64,000 bases of DNA. Source: a phage. Every line of letters begins with the position of its first letter. The stretch's first letter is position 1. Under the pieces are notes generated by a model, which saw only the letters and a program-made list of their open reading frames with translations, did no database searches and had not been told where the DNA came from. Below, piece after piece: positions 2,152-52,940 of the stretch. The DNA lies in the NCBI GenBank assembly GCA_033286805.1, contig GCA_033286805.1_4727.1; one strand, written 5' to 3'. Both the position numbers and the translations under genes were made by a program.

Positions 2152-3108
2152 TTAATGCAAGACACGATCTGCTGGAATTATCGAGGCATTGCTGTCGGAC
2201 AGATTCGTCGCTTTACGATCAGGACTGAATCGACGAGCGTTCTCTTCATGGTAGTTGACGGGGTTATCCTGTTTTAACAGTTCCATTGCCTCATCAAACG
2301 TTAGTTCCCGAAATCCTCTTGGATAGAGGAACAGGGGTTCATCAACATCCAGCCCTTTAACAAACCCGTGTGACAACCAGACGCTACCATCAGCACTGTA
2401 AAGAACCGGCTCAACGTCATAATCCAAGACGTATTGATACCAGTAATTAAACAGTTGGGCGATCCATCGATTACGTAATAAATAATCGATTACAACCGCA
2501 CTACGCACGCTGTGGCACCAGCCGATCTTACCATCAACTTTCTGCAACAACGTACCCTCATTTGCTTGATGAATAACCGCATTAAATAACCACGCGAGAT
2601 CGGTTGCGAAAAGTGCGGCTTCTTGAATATCGCTAATGTAACGCACGGGTATCGTCAGATGCGTGCGGTAATGCGACATCGCCTCTTCGTAGTTGTCTCC
2701 TTCGATGCAGAGAGTCCCGTTTGGTGACAGATGTCCCTGATTCAACGACTGACCAATATAAAGATCAGCGATCGCGTTAATATATTCGACGGTGCCCAAG
2801 GTTAACTCAGACATAAAAGAATCGACATCAACAGCCATCGATGTGCTGGAAACAAACGGATTGGTTGGGCGAGTTGTATTAGAGAAAATAATCGACCAAA
2901 TCGCTTCGTGTTTTTCATCCGATGGCATAAACGAAATATGGCGTTCCGCGCTATTATCGACAACAAATACCTTTACGGTTTTCAAGCAGTTAGTACAAAC
3001 ATAGCACGTGTTCGGCAACGGCATATCCGAAAACATATCGTAACGAATAGATGCCAGCGAAATGTCATGTCCGCAATGAGGGCATGTCGTATCAATAAGC
3101 GTTTTCAT
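2152..3108 (-). CDS. hypothetical protein with N-terminal zinc-ribbon (318 aa)
   Basis: CPHCGH ... CYVCTNC motif pairs; long ORF. Confidence 0.65.
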   Translation of the reverse strand: MKTLIDTTCPHCGHDISLASIRYDMFSDMPLPNTCYVCTNCLKTVKVFVVDNSAERHISFMPSDEKHEAIWSIIFSNTTRPTNPFVSSTSMAVDVDSFMSELTLGTVEYINAIADLYIGQSLNQGHLSPNGTLCIEGDNYEEAMSHYRTHLTIPVRYISDIQEAALFATDLAWLFNAVIHQANEGTLLQKVDGKIGWCHSVRSAVVIDYLLRNRWIAQLFNYWYQYVLDYDVEPVLYSADGSVWLSHGFVKGLDVDEPLFLYPRGFRELTFDEAMELLKQDNPVNYHEENARRFSPDRKATNLSDSNASIIPADRVLH

Positions 3109-4750: not shown

Positions 4751-4788
4751 CTTTATCTCCTTAACGGTTGCTGGTAACGCGGCATAAA

Positions 4789-4806
4789 CCCTCCCCGAAG
4801 GGAGGG
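4789..4806 (-). terminator. intrinsic terminator hairpin (minus-sense CCCTCCC-UUCG-GGGAGGG) with TTTATGCCG tail
   Basis: 7-bp GC stem with UUCG tetraloop 11 nt after the stop of 4817..5374. Confidence 0.6.
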
Positions 4807-10403: not shown

Positions 10404-10459
10404 AAAAAAAAAAATAGATAGCATATCTTCCTCCCTACCCATAACGGGCGGGGAGGAAG
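10402..10459. terminator. bidirectional terminator between convergent genes (hairpin plus A13/T13 run)
   Basis: cttcctccc / gggaggaag stem at 10427..10459; 13-A homopolymer 10402..10414 gives a T13 tract for minus-strand transcripts. Confidence 0.55.
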
Positions 10460-14404: not shown

Positions 14405-16407
14405 AACGTGATTACATCCTCCGGTTTAGGTTCTTTACGCGGTAAAAGCATGTAGTCGATCGGATGATCCGGCTTCATGGTTGGGATATAACTGTTCGGG
14501 TTTTGGAACGCATCCAGTTGCTCTTGGTGAGCGAACTTCATACTCAAGGAGCGCATGTTCATGTTCTTCTTGAAGGTACTGAAGTATCGTGTTGTTCCCT
14601 GTTTCGGCATGCGATAATCTTTCGTGTGTGGCGAACGAATCATGCTGGCGTAGAGAATAACGTCGAGATGCGAAAGGTTCATTCGCAGACGCTGGGCACA
14701 CAGGCGATGCCAATAATACAGCACGTTTGCAACTTCTTCCGGTGTTGCTTCGTCTTCCGAGAGGAATCCGGCACTGAAAGAACCTTTCCCGAATTTGAAC
14801 TCACGTTCGATTTCTTTTGCGTATTCCATCATGTTTTTGTGGATTAACGGCATCTGGAATAACGTACGTGAATTGTCCCAATGTTTCAAGTCGAAAATCA
14901 CAATCCCGTCAGACGTCACTTCCCAGCTATGGCGTTTAAGATAACGGATAAACGCTTTACTCGGGACGACGGGACGTCCACAGAAATCGAAATTGACTTT
15001 GAGCTTACGATAGCTTTCATCTTTCCTGTCGTAAATCTCCATATCACAAAGCGTCATGTTAAACAGACGTTGCGGTATCAGCGAACTGATTTCTTCCGCT
15101 TCGGCTACATCGTACAACATGTTCGCAAGACCTAACTTCATCTTAATCAGCACGTGTTTACCTTTCAGCTCACGTGCGAGTTTGATGTCGTTCATGTTCT
15201 GGCTGTAGCGAAGGATATGTTGATATTCCGGCGGGATTGGTGCTGTGGATACCGTTGACGAACCATCGTGGTGTTTGGTGGAAAGAATGTTCTGCGTTAC
15301 CTGTTGCGAACAGGTACGCGCTGCGCCATCGCCAACATTATCGGTTAGTGCGAAGTTATGACTTAATTCACCATAACACGTTGTACATACCCCAGCAGGA
15401 TCGGGATGATGACAATAGTTAACGGAGCGCATGCGTACCGTCGTGCCGATCAATTCTTTCATGTGTGGTTGTATAGCTACCAACGAACCGTCATCACGAA
15501 TAATGAATCGACCATGGAAGCCACGCAGGTCGGTCTCATCGCGGATTGGCATCGGGATGGTCTCTTTACTACCACAATCACCAGGATGAAGTCGTTGTAC
15601 AACCGCTGTCGCTATCTGAAGTTCACGACCGAAATATTCAGACTTTTTAATCTGCTCTTTGTTGAACAGCAACGATTTCGCCGCAGAACGACTTTCTTTC
15701 AAGCTGTCGGGAAGAGAGATCAAACCAGCTGCGTATGACCGCATTACTGGATCACGGAATATCTCGGAGTTAATATCAGTCAAGAATCCACGCATCCCAA
15801 TACACTGTAGCACCTGCCCAATCGAAACGTGTTCGGTTCTTACCGCACGTGCAATAGGGTTTGCATGTAACGTTTTATCGGTGCTCAGTACCTTCGTCAG
15901 TTTCTTGTATGCGCTTTCGATACCTTCGCGGGTGGGTTCCGCTTCAGCGATGATTTTCTTAACTTCAGGGTGTACAGTAATCTGATAAAAATCATCCGCA
16001 CAAATAGTTGTTACGTATTCCTCCAACGCATACGTAAAGAAGTTATACACATTGTTAAACATATCGAACAATGCTTTCCAGAGAACCTCGCGATTCTCTT
16101 GTGGGTAAGCATACATACATTGACGATACGCTGCGCTTTGCAACGCAACCGACGAACCAGCAGTAAACTTGCGTTTATCGACCAGGTTCTCTTTTGTCAA
16201 CGGTGTCTCAGGATACATGCGATGCACAGACCAATGCATGTAACTAAAGAAAATGCGTCGCGCACGTAATTCATGAACGCCATCGTCCATCTCGATATAT
16301 ACACGGTCATTAGGCTGTGCCCATTCGAACACCTCATCAACCGGCCAGTGCATAAGCTCGCGTGCCCTCACACGACGTTTCGTGGTGGTCGTCTGTGTTG
16401 TATTCAT
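14401..16407 (-). CDS. multisubunit RNA polymerase beta' subunit, C-terminal fragment (668 aa)
   Basis: AGVCTTCYG matches the beta' GVCAHCYG zinc-binding segment; SQQVTQNILSTKHHDGSS resembles the trigger-loop GTQLTMRTFHIGGA. Confidence 0.65.
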   Translation of the reverse strand: MNTTQTTTTKRRVRARELMHWPVDEVFEWAQPNDRVYIEMDDGVHELRARRIFFSYMHWSVHRMYPETPLTKENLVDKRKFTAGSSVALQSAAYRQCMYAYPQENREVLWKALFDMFNNVYNFFTYALEEYVTTICADDFYQITVHPEVKKIIAEAEPTREGIESAYKKLTKVLSTDKTLHANPIARAVRTEHVSIGQVLQCIGMRGFLTDINSEIFRDPVMRSYAAGLISLPDSLKESRSAAKSLLFNKEQIKKSEYFGRELQIATAVVQRLHPGDCGSKETIPMPIRDETDLRGFHGRFIIRDDGSLVAIQPHMKELIGTTVRMRSVNYCHHPDPAGVCTTCYGELSHNFALTDNVGDGAARTCSQQVTQNILSTKHHDGSSTVSTAPIPPEYQHILRYSQNMNDIKLARELKGKHVLIKMKLGLANMLYDVAEAEEISSLIPQRLFNMTLCDMEIYDRKDESYRKLKVNFDFCGRPVVPSKAFIRYLKRHSWEVTSDGIVIFDLKHWDNSRTLFQMPLIHKNMMEYAKEIEREFKFGKGSFSAGFLSEDEATPEEVANVLYYWHRLCAQRLRMNLSHLDVILYASMIRSPHTKDYRMPKQGTTRYFSTFKKNMNMRSLSMKFAHQEQLDAFQNPNSYIPTMKPDHPIDYMLLPRKEPKPEDVITL

Positions 16408-21037: not shown

Positions 21038-21066
21038 CCCTCCCACAGCGTAAAGCGTAGGGAGGG
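21038..21066. terminator. hairpin terminator between convergent genes
   Basis: ccctccc / gggaggg stem; plus-sense tail CATTTATGCCG. Confidence 0.5.
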
Positions 21067-21097
21067 CATTTATGCCGTCGTTCGATGACTTAATACA

Positions 21098-31768: not shown

Positions 31769-31810
31769 GATTGTCCTCGTTTTCAATTTTAAGATTGCAT
31801 GCGGCATAAA

Positions 31811-31835
31811 CCCTCCCCGCCTTATGCAGGGAGGG
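31811..31835 (-). terminator. hairpin terminator with TTTATGCCG tail
   Basis: ccctccc / gggaggg stem. Confidence 0.55.
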
Positions 31836-32749: not shown

Positions 32750-33122
32750 GCTACTTCGTATCCGCAGCATTACCTGCAGCTCCTGGTGTTACCAGGATGT
32801 TGAGAGTATATCATGTCCATATTCCAAATGGAACGTAGGACTTCCGCGCTGGATCTCGCTTGAGACCGCTTACTCGTTGAACGTTCTCCTAAACGGAGCT
32901 TCGCTGCTGATTGGACATTGTTACGTACGGTAGGCGTCCCATTAAAGGGATTTTCATTGAAGCCGCGTACATCCGTTACCTTGTTTCTACCTTATCGGTT
33001 CCTCTTACGAGGCGTAACGGCTTTAGCCTATTCCAGCAATTCACGGAATGCATATTCTCCTTTTCAGGAGATAAGGCCATGGCTCTGGCATCACCGTCAA
33101 AGTCCACGTATCTTCAGTATGG
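32750..33122. repeat. structured element A (about 373 nt), unit 1 of a diverged tandem pair
   Basis: Shares collinear conserved blocks with unit B (ccgcagcattacctgcagctcctggtgttaccagga, gctgctgattg, ccttatcgg, ggctttagcc, cagcaattcacggaat); no ORF above 61 aa. Confidence 0.6.
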
Positions 33123-33480
33123 TTCGCTACTCCATACCCGCAGCATTACCTGCAGCTCCTGGTGTTACCAGGACGGAGAGATCATCTCATCACCCACGAA
33201 GGGTGTTCCGCGCTACCCTCAGCGAATTCGAGGGACATGATCGTTGAACCTTCCACCGATAATCGGCGGCTAGGCTGCTGATTGAACATTGTACGTTGGG
33301 GTGGCATCCTGGTGCAGGACTGTCGTTGAAGCCTCCCAACATCCACTCACTTATTTCCGCCTTATCGGCTCCCACAAGGGCAGAGTGGCTTTAGCCCGTC
33401 TCAGCAATTCACGGAATTCAAGCTCTTCCTTTCGGAAGGCAGGGCCTCATTTGAAGCGTTGTATCCCTTAAGGATCATCA
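33123..33480. repeat. structured element B (about 358 nt), unit 2 of the tandem pair; overlaps last ~26 codons of the beta' N gene
   Basis: Collinear with unit A; stems differ by compensatory changes (aggc/gcct vs gggc/gccc; tctcc/ggaga vs cttcc/ggaag). Confidence 0.6.
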
Positions 33481-34705: not shown

Positions 34706-34747
34706 GGGGTATCTCCTACAAATGAAAAAGAACGTTAGGACGTATAA

Positions 34748-34771
34748 GGGAGGGAGGTTGCCCTCCCTCCC
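34748..34771 (-). terminator. strong hairpin after the candidate chimallin gene
   Basis: Perfect 10-bp stem gggagggagg / cctccctccc with 4-nt loop, 27 nt after the stop. Confidence 0.55.
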
Positions 34772-36758: not shown

Positions 36759-36782
36759 CACCTAGGTAATATAACCCTGAAA
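36759..36782 (-). promoter_or_regulatory. early-promoter-like motif (minus-sense TTTCAGGGTTATATTACCTAGGTG)
   Basis: Same motif, 73 nt upstream of the candidate chimallin gene. Confidence 0.5.
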
Positions 36783-36947
36783 TTTTTTTCAATATTGGTG
36801 TAACCACATTGAACGATATAAACCCCCAGGCGAACGCTGCCGAGAAGCAACATTCTTTCTACATATAATCAGGATATGTCTGTAAACTTTTACTTCTCTT
36901 ATTGAGAGTAAAGTCATATCCGTTTACCATCTTCTTACGGAGTTCGT

Positions 36948-38108: not shown

Positions 38109-40262
38109 TTACTCTGCGGTTTCTCGCTTCGGTAAATAACTTGCTGCGATGTCTTGGGCCAACAATGTATTGTTTTTATTCGAGATGAAAATACCGTAAC
38201 TTTCCATTAACGCGTAATACGAACGCACGAGCGTAGAGATCAATCGACGAATATCCATACCTTGAATAAAGATATCGGGAAGCCCGGAGGCTTCGATCAC
38301 CGGTAATGGTATCGTTAAGTTGCTTATCGTTTTCTTATCGTTACGTACAATCCAATCACGGAAACGTTGTTGTAACCCTTTATCCTCCCAGGAATCAATC
38401 CAATCGTTAAGAAGCGTTTTGTTCTTCGTCGCCAACGGCACACGAACCCCAACATAGGGTGGTTCCTGGCAATGGCCGTACGATTGAGCAAACACCTCTT
38501 CCCACATATCGTAAGACTGTTTCGTTACTGCAACATGCGGTTTCACTTTAACACGTGTTAAGAAATCAGGATCACCACGTTTCATGGACTCAACGATTTC
38601 GTTTTCTAACGAGATAATATCATCAAGAACCAATCGAATGCTGATCTTCTCATTACGTAACAGCTTATCCATGATACCACACATCATGCGTTCAACACGT
38701 TTGACGATCATTTTTGGTGCTGACGCATCGCGCATAACCGGACCTTTCAATTCCAGCTTCGGTGGATTGATAGGAACCCCCTCACGCATGGTCATGTAAC
38801 CGTAATAGTTTTTACCCATCGAGGTTAACGACAGAATCAAGAACATATATTCGTTCTTCATTTCCATTACGTACATATGCTCTTTCGCCACACCGATATT
38901 ACCAGAACACATCGCCATCAGATGGACTGTAATCTGCGTAACCAGATAGATAAGCGTGTTTGCTAAGCGCGTCGAAACTGGATTGATCTCCATATTTCCA
39001 AATCGCCACTGAACCCACTCCTGGCAGGTAAACACCGTCGAGTCGGTATCAGACAACACGCCCACTTCACGGATTGCTGATGGGAAAGCATAAACACCAG
39101 CCGGTTGGTTCTCGGTACGCCAGAACGCCATAATCAAATCAGCATAGCTTTGAATACGCTGTAGCATTAATTTTGTCGTTGCTGCAGTAAGACGATAACC
39201 AAGCTCATTTCCTTTTTCTAGCGCTACGTAAATCGCTTCCCCATTCAAGAACTCCGTACATTGTGCTGTAATCCAAGCGACCGTGTTGTTATCCATGGAA
39301 GCAATAATGGCTTTAGCCTCTTCCATCGTTTCAACAGGTTCGGATGCCAGCTCGCATAACGAATCAAGAAAATCTCGAACAAATTCAGGATTAAGCTCAC
39401 GTAACGAGTACAGGTTATTGCTGTACATGTAGCAGGCGCGTTCCAGTGGGGTTAAACCGGTAATTAACTCCCGGATAGTCAGTTCTTTCTCTGGGTCGAA
39501 AGTATACCGATGCAAGCATTTCGATACGTTAGCCCAAACCTCTTCCGGCGTAGGGTAATGTAGTTTGTATTTTACCATTACCTGTTCAATGGCTTTACGA
39601 TCGCTGTTGCGGACAATACTCACGATGTTTTCAATTGCGATATCACAATCGTAATAATGGAAATTGCCCGCAAGGAAGCGTTCGTTGTTCGCATTGGCTG
39701 AACCTGAAGCACAGCGACATGTTGTCGTTAAACTTGGATGTGCGATCGGATTATAAAAAGGGTTAAACTTGGACGCCTGGGTTCCTGACAAACTGTTGTT
39801 ATCTAACTTGGTGTTGGTTTGTCGTTTATCGTGTAACTCAGCTTCATCTTTACGTCCGTGTGCTTGTGCTATCGACATTTGTTTCTTTTGTTTCTTACGC
39901 AACTTACCGTTTTCAACCGCGAAATCGCTTAGCACACTGGAACGTGTTTCACGTGGATAACAGTTAGCCCATACCGGCGTGATAATTAAATTATTTTCTT
40001 TAATATCATTGAAGTATTGGCTGAACTTAATGACTTCTTTTTCTCGATTTCCTTCGGTACGCTGTGTTAATACAAGACAGTCGGGATCAACCATCCCGTA
40101 TTTTCCACCGGGACGAACCGTATCAAGGACAAACTGTAACGCTTCCTGCTGTGATATCCCACGCATGCGCATTAAGAACAGGGTATAATCCTGTACCGCT
40201 TCTTTGGTCATATCCAACGTACGACCATATCCGTTTTCATCGTAAAAGAACGGATTTTCCAT
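38109..40262 (-). CDS. large hypothetical protein (717 aa); function unassigned
   Basis: Long ORF with GGAGG SD; contains LSDTDS and KNYYGY motifs but in the wrong order for a family-B polymerase. Confidence 0.6.
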   Translation of the reverse strand: MENPFFYDENGYGRTLDMTKEAVQDYTLFLMRMRGISQQEALQFVLDTVRPGGKYGMVDPDCLVLTQRTEGNREKEVIKFSQYFNDIKENNLIITPVWANCYPRETRSSVLSDFAVENGKLRKKQKKQMSIAQAHGRKDEAELHDKRQTNTKLDNNSLSGTQASKFNPFYNPIAHPSLTTTCRCASGSANANNERFLAGNFHYYDCDIAIENIVSIVRNSDRKAIEQVMVKYKLHYPTPEEVWANVSKCLHRYTFDPEKELTIRELITGLTPLERACYMYSNNLYSLRELNPEFVRDFLDSLCELASEPVETMEEAKAIIASMDNNTVAWITAQCTEFLNGEAIYVALEKGNELGYRLTAATTKLMLQRIQSYADLIMAFWRTENQPAGVYAFPSAIREVGVLSDTDSTVFTCQEWVQWRFGNMEINPVSTRLANTLIYLVTQITVHLMAMCSGNIGVAKEHMYVMEMKNEYMFLILSLTSMGKNYYGYMTMREGVPINPPKLELKGPVMRDASAPKMIVKRVERMMCGIMDKLLRNEKISIRLVLDDIISLENEIVESMKRGDPDFLTRVKVKPHVAVTKQSYDMWEEVFAQSYGHCQEPPYVGVRVPLATKNKTLLNDWIDSWEDKGLQQRFRDWIVRNDKKTISNLTIPLPVIEASGLPDIFIQGMDIRRLISTLVRSYYALMESYGIFISNKNNTLLAQDIAASYLPKRETAE

Positions 40263-40337
40263 AAATCCTCCAAAAGTTATTTAGTCTGTCTACATCATCT
40301 CGTATATCTGTTAAAAAAGAAGGACGGCATAAAAAAG

Positions 40338-40365
40338 AACCGATCCAGCCGAAGCCAGATCGGTT
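40338..40365 (-). terminator. intrinsic terminator: 12-bp stem, UUCG tetraloop, U-tract then TTTATGCCG
   Basis: minus-sense aaccgatctggc-ttcg-gctggatcggtt with two G-U wobbles that are valid only on the minus-sense RNA. Confidence 0.65.
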
Positions 40366-40561
40366 AAAAAAGGATAATAACTGACAGAAAGATATCGATG
40401 ATGTTCGTGAAACAAGATCTTCTCTCGTGTACAATGATGCTAGATCAGAGGGAGGTTGTAACACGAGAGGTGGTCCGCCAAAGAAGGAATAAAAACACGA
40501 ACCTATCTTATTTCACTGATGGCACTAACCACTCAAAATATATAGTACCGTATGTAAAAGT

Positions 40562-40975
40562 TTACTGATTAATCAAGTCGTTAGCAACAATCTTGGTGTA
40601 ACCTGCTTGATTAAGAATTTGATTAATTTTCGTCACGTCGGTCGCATCCTCAATAACGATGCTGGGTTTATAGATCAGCGTCTTGGTAACGACGATTGTA
40701 CTCTCCTTAATCCAAGGAATCCCTAGAATCACATACTCACCATCGGCTGTAATGACCTCGACGTAATTGTATTTCGTCGGATCGTTCGGTACACTAGACG
40801 GGAGCCGGGAATAAATCTGTTGGTGAATGGCATCTACATCACGACCGTTACGTACAGCTGTGCGATAATTGTACACAGCGCTAATTTCTACTCCGTTGAA
40901 GTTAACCCCAAGTTCTGGGGCGTACACATCAAAACTCACAACAGAGCCAATCTTTTCTAAATCAGAAGCTGGCAT
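40562..40975 (-). CDS. hypothetical protein (137 aa)
   Basis: ATG with AAGGA SD. Confidence 0.5.
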   Translation of the reverse strand: MPASDLEKIGSVVSFDVYAPELGVNFNGVEISAVYNYRTAVRNGRDVDAIHQQIYSRLPSSVPNDPTKYNYVEVITADGEYVILGIPWIKESTIVVTKTLIYKPSIVIEDATDVTKINQILNQAGYTKIVANDLINQ

Positions 40976-52747: not shown

Positions 52748-52899
52748 CAATGTAACGGTAAAACTTTACTGACGTTGGTTATTATTTGAAGCATAGGGCT
52801 TCACCCAGGAGTACCATCCCTTTAAGTCGTTTGTCCTCTCCTGGTTAACTGTCGTTCTCTCACAGTGCTCGACAGACCAAAAATGCTCAGGCCTCATAG

Positions 52900-52928
52900 C
52901 CTCCTCTGGGAATGGAACCCAGAGGAGG
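52900..52928. terminator. hairpin between convergent genes
   Basis: Perfect 11-bp stem cctcctctggg / cccagaggagg with 7-nt loop. Confidence 0.5.
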
Positions 52929-52940
52929 ACTATGTTTGCC

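Follow-up and report, generated by a model that had tools for sequence, protein, structure and literature searches.

Long-read mapping of transcripts from the giant phages phiKZ and 201phi2-1 has uncovered many short RNAs in 5' untranslated regions (UTRs), each running from a start site to a premature terminator; a few intergenic ones were found as well, and some are conserved in position among giant phages (PMC10914365; PMC11512511). Here we describe a candidate RNA in a 64,000-nucleotide (nt) stretch of phage DNA (contig GCA_033286805.1_4727.1 of GenBank assembly GCA_033286805.1), to which we refer as the window. The candidate lies on the minus strand of a gap, positions 40263..40561, between the genes for an SH3DP protein and a DNA polymerase. 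The initial annotation of this DNA had proposed that the gap holds either a small RNA (sRNA) of ∼200 nt or a structured 3' UTR. What the two alternatives share, a structured noncoding minus-strand RNA that ends at a real terminator, is supported because the RNA folds better than shuffled sequences, diverges at half the rate of third codon positions, contains no conserved open reading frame (ORF) and keeps its position and length. The element is real, conserved, noncoding and structured, and as an sRNA or leader candidate it appears plausible but fairly ordinary. The reading that we favor, tentatively and with somewhat less than even confidence, is a locally initiated, terminator-bounded leader or sRNA of ∼200 nt that would insulate, and possibly gate, expression of the polymerase.

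Conservation and coding capacity of the gap

The window shares 98-99% identity with Escherichia phage vB_EcoM_Goslar. This E. coli phage is a jumbo phage that forms a nucleus and belongs to the chimallivirus group. As reported earlier, the gap is real and extends from the stop codon of a 137-residue gene (40562..40975) to the ATG of a 717-residue gene (38109..40262), both on the minus strand. The upstream ORF is a homolog of Goslar gp243 (Goslar_00192), and its product matches Pfam family PF20287, 'SH3 fold domain associated with phage DNA polymerases', with an E-value of 1.3e-36. The downstream ORF is a homolog of Goslar gp244 and encodes a divergent family-B DNA polymerase (Pfam PF20286, E-value 2.4e-204). 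According to the Goslar annotation, chimallin is encoded ∼1.4 kb downstream of the end of the polymerase gene and the PhuZ tubulin ∼3.7 kb upstream of the SH3DP gene.

The analysis covered nine Goslar-type sequences in total. A DNA-level search of phage records for distant relatives matched Goslar alone; diverged lineages of the same clade were found by protein searches. One of these is L009, with a polymerase that is 64% identical, and the other comprises L006, L007, L008, L010 and L011, where identity is 58% for the polymerase and 66% for the SH3DP protein. The order SH3DP–gap–polymerase is kept in all three lineages (58-66% protein identity), with a gap of 299 bp in the window and of 303 and 310-312 bp in the two diverged lineages. 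The gap interior cannot be aligned between lineages, and the inferred RNA bodies measure 168 nt in the window, 178 nt in L009 and 176 nt in L006.

Within the Goslar-type set, comparison of the window with L016 gave divergences of 0.26-0.29 at the third codon positions of the flanking genes, 0.139 in the gap body, 0.029 in the promoter-like element described below and 0.000 in the terminator. Six further pairwise comparisons gave the same ordering. The gap body is slower than third codon positions, diverging at about half their rate, and we therefore conclude that the gap is under purifying selection. The proximal 5' UTR of the polymerase gene (40263..40323, minus strand), which carries a GGAGG Shine-Dalgarno sequence at 40271..40267, differs at no more than one of its 61 positions in six of seven Goslar-type comparisons, and at 7 of 61 in L016.

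This conservation does not appear to reflect a coding function. The 75-residue ORF listed in the initial annotation (40237..40464) exists, as do ORFs of 34 and 56 residues, the latter on the plus strand, and in the equivalent gap of L012, a relative with 37% polymerase identity, a 70-residue hydrophobic ORF with a good Shine-Dalgarno sequence is found (2521..2733). An unannotated small protein gene, be it the 75-residue ORF, the 56-residue plus-strand ORF or a shorter one, is nonetheless hardly credible. The 75-residue ORF begins with GTG, has no Shine-Dalgarno sequence and spans the terminator; no Pfam match was obtained for it or for the 56-residue ORF, and no Shine-Dalgarno sequence or ATG start is suitably placed. 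Single-nucleotide indels shift the reading frames among relatives that are 97-99% identical, no gap peptide is common to the lineages (cross-lineage E-values of at least 0.04 in a tiny database), and the L012 ORF is unrelated to anything in the Goslar-clade gaps. With no ORF conserved, we reject a coding role, and the gap is in all likelihood noncoding.

Terminator and predicted fold of the RNA

The minus-strand intrinsic terminator claimed for the gap was confirmed exactly by a terminator scan: a stem-loop at 40338..40365 with 12 pairs (6 G-C), a UUCG loop and a U-tract. It is already annotated in the Goslar record (176545..176568), is invariant in the nine Goslar-type sequences and lies 75 nt before the polymerase ATG. 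All three lineages have a strong hairpin at the matching relative position, with stems of unrelated sequence and a common tail, TTCTTTTTATGCC, i.e. TTCTTTTT(T)ATGCC.

From 61 mapped terminators, Putzeys et al. 2024 derived the phiKZ terminator motif BCCYCCCCHWWDGGGRRGGBYTTATKYYGT (PMC10914365). The gap terminator resembles this motif in having a GC-rich hairpin followed by TTATGCCGT (40332..40324), an exact fit to TTATKYYGT within the tail C-U6-AUGCCGU (40324..40337, minus strand). It differs in its stem, which is AACCGATCTGGC/GCTGGATCGGTT rather than the CCYCCCC/GGGRRGG arms (L009 and L006 have other stems again), and in the U6 run before the AUG. The tail also holds TATG, at 40331..40328, and T-3ATG+1 is the late start-site motif of phiKZ (PMC4666361), so re-initiation for the polymerase gene would be possible there.

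Elsewhere in the window, GGGAGGG/CCCTCCC is strongly enriched in intergenic DNA, which holds 12 of the 13 occurrences of the heptamer. Hairpins of these arms followed by TTTATGCCG are found at 4805..4781, 31834..31803, 34771..34731, 10456..10415 and 21044..21078 (plus strand) and in the regions of 30354 and 44383; TTTATGCCG[T/C] follows the hairpins at 4788, 31810, 44383 and 21069 (plus strand). These hairpins are the canonical form of the phiKZ motif, and the terminator class therefore extends to E. coli chimalliviruses. The same motif rules out two other readings that we had considered, namely that TTTATGCC after the hairpins is a start codon or purely a polymerase promoter, and that the hairpins sequester Shine-Dalgarno sequences (PMC10914365).

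Upstream of the terminator, the RNA is predicted to form a three-way junction (40407..40516, minus strand), on which the minimum free energy and centroid folds agree and two of whose stems are inverted repeats. One is the 9-bp repeat of the initial annotation, which we confirmed: its arms, 40422-40430 and 40461-40469, are 100% complementary and 30 nt apart. Such a repeat is not rare by itself in 300 nt (∼0.1 expected, by a rough estimate). The loop sequence given for it, GAGGGAGG, turned out to be the plus-strand reading, and the loop of the minus-strand RNA carries CCUCCCUC (40455..40448). The other is a 12-bp stem that had been overlooked, 40516-40505 pairing with 40418-40407, with 92% complementarity and 86 nt between the arms. 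This stem closes the junction and encloses two hairpins, S3 (40503-40497/40478-40472), whose loop has UUCCUUCUUU (40489..40480), and S4 (40469-40461/40430-40422), which is the 9-bp repeat. The predicted folds also include a small 5' hairpin (40517..40535, minus strand), recovered by RNAalifold as its helix 1 with 7 pairs, 6 of which never vary, albeit with weak support, and a largely unpaired linker between junction and terminator (40366..40406, minus strand), where L016 has a 19-nt insertion.

Compared with shuffled sequences, the whole gap folds with a z-score of -3.8 on the minus strand and -2.2 on the plus strand, and the junction alone with -3.9 in the sense and -2.5 in the antisense direction. 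The RNA bodies without the terminator gave -3.1 in the window, -2.5 in L009 and -3.9 in L006. In a consensus fold over eight Goslar-type variants, pairing is kept in 99.8% of cells, and nearly all substitutions in the stems preserve it. One compensatory change, from G-C to A-U, is found in S3 of L016; the closing stem has one change from U.G to U-A; several changes lead to G.U, which pairs in the minus-strand RNA only; and a single terminal pair is broken. The hairpins of the L006 lineage differ from these; one of them shows a compensatory pair and three pair-preserving changes with no breaks. A hairpin at 40549..40521 in the single-sequence fold was discarded, as substitutions disrupt it and the inferred start falls downstream of its 5' arm.

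A permissive scan of the gap with Rfam 15 returned only osmY, on the plus strand over the terminator, with an E-value of 0.33 and 18.5 bits against a threshold of 46.9. Nothing reached the Rfam gathering score in the window, in L006, in L009 or in the phiKZ locus, and a scan of the window for transfer and transfer-messenger RNAs found none.

A palindromic promoter-like element and the possible origin of the transcript

A conserved promoter-like element does occur at the 5' end of the gap, yet it is a different one from the degenerate early-motif element that had been named; it consists of a palindrome followed by TTGAG. The 12-bp near-palindrome GTAAACTTTTAC (40554..40565, both strands) overlaps the TAA stop codon of the SH3DP gene (40564..40562). 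An AT-rich block with TTGAG follows on the minus strand (40532..40548), with an inferred start at G 40534, 20 nt past the palindrome. The palindrome GTAAANNTTTAC overlaps the SH3DP stop codon in all three lineages, reading GTAAGAGTTTAC at the same position in L009 and GTAAAGCTTTAC in L006/L010, and the spacing from the palindrome to (T/A)TTGAG is kept at 16-17 nt in the three. No other part of the gap is as conserved across lineages as the palindrome with TTGAG.

The palindrome recurs. In the Goslar genome, GTAA(A/G)NN(C/T)TTAC occurs at nine sites, compared with 0.96 in shuffles, and eight of the nine are intergenic (record positions 15706, 16758, 26467, 45746, 81200, 173087, 176758, 188961 and 202818). 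They include a site upstream of the major head protein gene and one just past the stop of gp068, the other polymerase fragment. Three sites fall in the window, at 36882..36893, 40554 and 52758..52769. All three lineages have the palindrome upstream of chimallin, where it is followed at the same distance by TATGTAG, i.e. TATG(+1)TAG; in L010, a 19-nt stretch of this copy is the same as the start of the gap. Upstream of the major head protein, the same geometry gives CATG. No downstream sequence common with the gap was found at two 'orphan' sites, 15706 and 188961, and for this reason we claim no family with them. The palindrome is a candidate for the upstream element of a middle-type promoter or for an operator. 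No paper describes it among the published work on these phages that we consulted, and we regard it as a new lead.

Yakunina et al. 2015 described the middle promoters of phiKZ as AAanTTACc centered near -24, some with TATG at +1 (PMC4666361). As in those promoters, a G in a T-rich context follows 19-20 nt after the end of an AAAnnTTTAC element: from the end of AAACTTTTAC to G 40534 the distance is 20 nt, and an AAanTTAC-like element is present near -24. The chimallin-upstream palindrome has TATG at that distance. The geometry agrees with the layout reported for middle and late promoters of phiKZ. Unlike the phiKZ promoters, the element is extended into a 12-bp palindrome, and the start-site motif in the gap is TTTG/ATTG then AG, not TATG. 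A sigma-70 promoter scan found no minus-strand site in the gap, and its counts were at chance level. The host polymerase is not used by chimallivirus-type phages.

The early promoters of the window look different. De novo, we found the Goslar-type early motif TTCACGGCTATATTACyTnnGTGA on the minus strand at 36773, 30952, 25673 and 6618, and it is almost invariant across the window, L009 and L006/L010 lineages. The copy at 36773 precedes the ATG of chimallin by ∼80 nt, which agrees with published work placing the start site of chimallin no more than 91 nt from this codon; the core TTATATTACCTA has been retained in L009 and L010 as well. The 'early-motif-like' element placed at ∼40525..40548 is a loose resemblance (ACGG...TATAT...AGTG). 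It has TATATATT instead of the TATATTAC core, which is also absent from the counterparts in L009 (TATTATTT) and L006 (ATTAATTG), whereas the chimallin early promoters of those lineages keep it. That partial likeness would fit a degenerate early promoter from which the virion RNA polymerase makes an early sRNA, but with the core missing in all three gaps and the true motif near-invariant, we consider this very improbable.

The local-initiation mechanism that we favor can be outlined as follows. From motif geometry, the palindrome (40565..40554) and the AT-rich/TTGAG block 16-17 nt on would constitute a middle-type promoter for the non-virion RNA polymerase, with initiation near G 40534, which corresponds to 176,738 in Goslar; a start there would give an RNA of ∼204 nt to the U-tract. 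Thermodynamic prediction and compatible substitutions suggest that the transcript would fold into the small 5' hairpin and the three-way junction (40516..40407). Most transcripts, both local ones and those of the upstream operon, would stop at the terminator (40365..40338), the U-tract of which runs to ∼40331. Expression of the polymerase would then depend on read-through of the terminator or on re-initiation at the TATG in its tail, and the element would act as an insulator and possibly as a gate. The terminator lies <250 nt from the inferred start and upstream of the next gene, the arrangement by which a leader or sRNA is recognized.

In the main rival reading, the gap has no start site and serves as a long, structured 3' UTR of the SH3DP operon. 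Transcripts from upstream would continue beyond the stop codon for 224 nt until they reach the terminator, the fold would stabilize the mRNA or yield a processed 3'-UTR fragment, and the palindrome would be a DNA site with another role. We regard this as somewhat doubtful, yet a serious contender. Structure and sequence constraint fit it equally well, the gap terminator is the first one after the stop codon, and ncRNA1 and ncRNA2 of phage PAK_P3 arise from 3' UTRs and have no start site (PMC10914365). What it leaves unexplained is the conserved palindrome with TTGAG, which recurs near chimallin and the major head protein in promoter-like geometry. Moreover, where other clear intergenic terminators occur on the minus strand of the window, they are 10-65 nt from the preceding stop codon, compared with 197 nt here.

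Several observations weigh against local initiation of a discrete, conserved RNA. About 42% of phiKZ 3' UTRs exceed 100 nt, such that 200 nt is not exceptional (PMC10914365). The putative start motif in the gap is TTTG and deviates from the TATG consensus, which the phiKZ enzyme strictly needs in vitro (PMC4666361), and the palindrome might instead bind a protein and have nothing to do with initiation in the gap. Published Goslar RNA-seq is given per gene only, and the Goslar papers contain no intergenic transcript or transcript-end data. Among distant relatives (35-37% identity) the gap differs, measuring 104 bp in L013 and 536 bp in L012, and the predicted structures differ between lineages. 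A covariance model of the junction found no significant homolog in L006, L009 or phiKZ and, in the window and in the genome of Goslar, only itself. When the filters were switched off, the top match in L006 (E-value 0.72) and one match in L009 (E-value 3.3) were not significant, and both fell in the homologous gaps on the right strand. Formal covariation was not significant either, the observed score being reached by 129 of 500 shuffles; the sequences are too similar to give much covariation signal.

That last result, together with the unalignable interior and the fact that the slowest-evolving parts are the palindrome, the terminator and the terminator-proximal region, would suit a DNA-level regulatory spacer composed of an operator palindrome, the terminator of the upstream operon and a polymerase promoter, in which the RNA fold has no function of its own. 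We consider such a spacer unlikely because the interior changes only about half as fast as third codon positions, its folding is significantly better than that of shuffled sequences in three independent lineages, its length is kept at 168-178 nt and its substitutions preserve pairing, including the minus-strand-specific G.U changes.

A broader scenario is improbable when taken as a whole. In this scenario GTAAANNTTTAC would mark an undescribed middle-class promoter/operator regulon of Goslar-type chimalliviruses, its nine sites including chimallin, the major head protein and both polymerase loci. The gap RNA would be a riboregulator made in the phage nucleus, gating DNA polymerase synthesis by conditional termination or acting in trans through its CU-rich loops, UUCCUUCUUU and CCUCCCUC; possible trans targets would be, for example, the GGGAGGG arms of canonical terminators or ribosome-binding sites. 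Genome-wide, complements of CCUCCCUC are mostly terminator arms. Duplex energies with the ribosome-binding region of the polymerase gene, compared with shuffles, gave p ∼0.34 in the window and ∼0.5 in L009 and were nominal only in L006/L010. A trans-acting anti-Shine-Dalgarno role for the RNA is not supported: its pairing with that region is at chance level in the window lineage, and the loop complements are mostly terminator arms.

Three other places where the palindrome occurs deserve mention. At 52758..52935 on the plus strand, a palindrome with TTTGAAG at +19 sits within a convergent gap, 10 nt beyond the stop codon of a plus-strand gene, and a strong hairpin, CCTCCTCTGGG...CCCAGAGGAGG, follows ∼140 nt downstream; this may be a second palindrome-headed unit without an ORF. 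At 36830..36870 on the minus strand (7610..7680 in L010), past the chimallin-upstream palindrome and its TATGTAG, a small conserved hairpin is followed by GGGGTTTATATCGT, which resembles a terminator tail and is upstream of the early promoter, and another very short unit may lie here. Outside the window, 854 nt of the Goslar sequence L040 (14972..15825) have no annotated gene; this stretch is AT-rich, has many GATAA/AGATAA repeats and carries the palindrome site 15706 near its upstream end.

In a separate part of the window, 32782..33465 on the minus strand, there are two sub-threshold matches to group I introns (bit scores of 28 and 26, with a gathering score of 50; E-value ∼1e-4). Here ∼406 nt of the window (33050..33455) stand in for ∼1,496 nt of Goslar (168165..169660), which comprise the HNH endonuclease gene gp186 and an annotated intron. 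Intron and homing-endonuclease content therefore varies between near-identical phages.

Comparison with known phage RNAs

If the RNA is real, it is a position-conserved noncoding RNA beside the replicative polymerase of nucleus-forming phages that infect E. coli. Goslar is tractable, as knockdown with dCas13d and antisense oligomers allows a direct test of function. If the gap is only a 3' UTR, the finding is an ordinary one. The palindrome is probably the more useful by-product, in that the middle-class promoters of chimalliviruses are poorly defined and a 12-bp, lineage-conserved motif with nine sites offers a way to find the factor, or the form of the polymerase, that recognizes those sites.

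The T4 gene 43 translational operator, which overlaps the ribosome-binding site, serves in autoregulation of the T4 DNA polymerase. Like this operator, the gap element is a structured RNA upstream of a phage DNA polymerase gene; unlike it, the structure in the gap is set off from the ribosome-binding site by the terminator and 60 nt. The element also resembles ncRNA1 and ncRNA2 of PAK_P3, which are abundant, in being a structured RNA downstream of a gene that ends at a terminator (PMC10914365). It differs from them in that they have no start site of their own, whereas the gap has a conserved promoter-like element at its 5' end.

In phiKZ itself, the SH3DP gene (gp49) and the polymerase gene (gp50) are separated by a gap of 201 bp (878..1078 of L045, record positions 40377..40577) with an overall fold z-score of -5.3. 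A terminator hairpin directly follows the stop codon and runs into TTTTATG, and ∼90 nt further on there is a second hairpin, GGGTACCC/GGGTACCC, with a CU-rich tail. This gap may be a short transcription unit analogous to the Goslar-type one. The main texts on phiKZ and 201phi2-1, supplementary tables aside, mention no such RNA upstream of the polymerase (PMC10914365; PMC11512511).

The closest parallel is with the short RNAs of these two phages. The gap RNA differs from them in being predicted from sequence, and it has no likeness to the phiKZ locus in sequence or by covariance model. As with those RNAs, it belongs to a chimallivirus, is predicted to be <250 nt and structured, lies just upstream of a gene and has a phage-type terminator at its end. 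It is likewise conserved by its position near a homologous gene and not by its sequence. On this comparison, the gap element fits the kind of short RNA already mapped in phiKZ and 201phi2-1.

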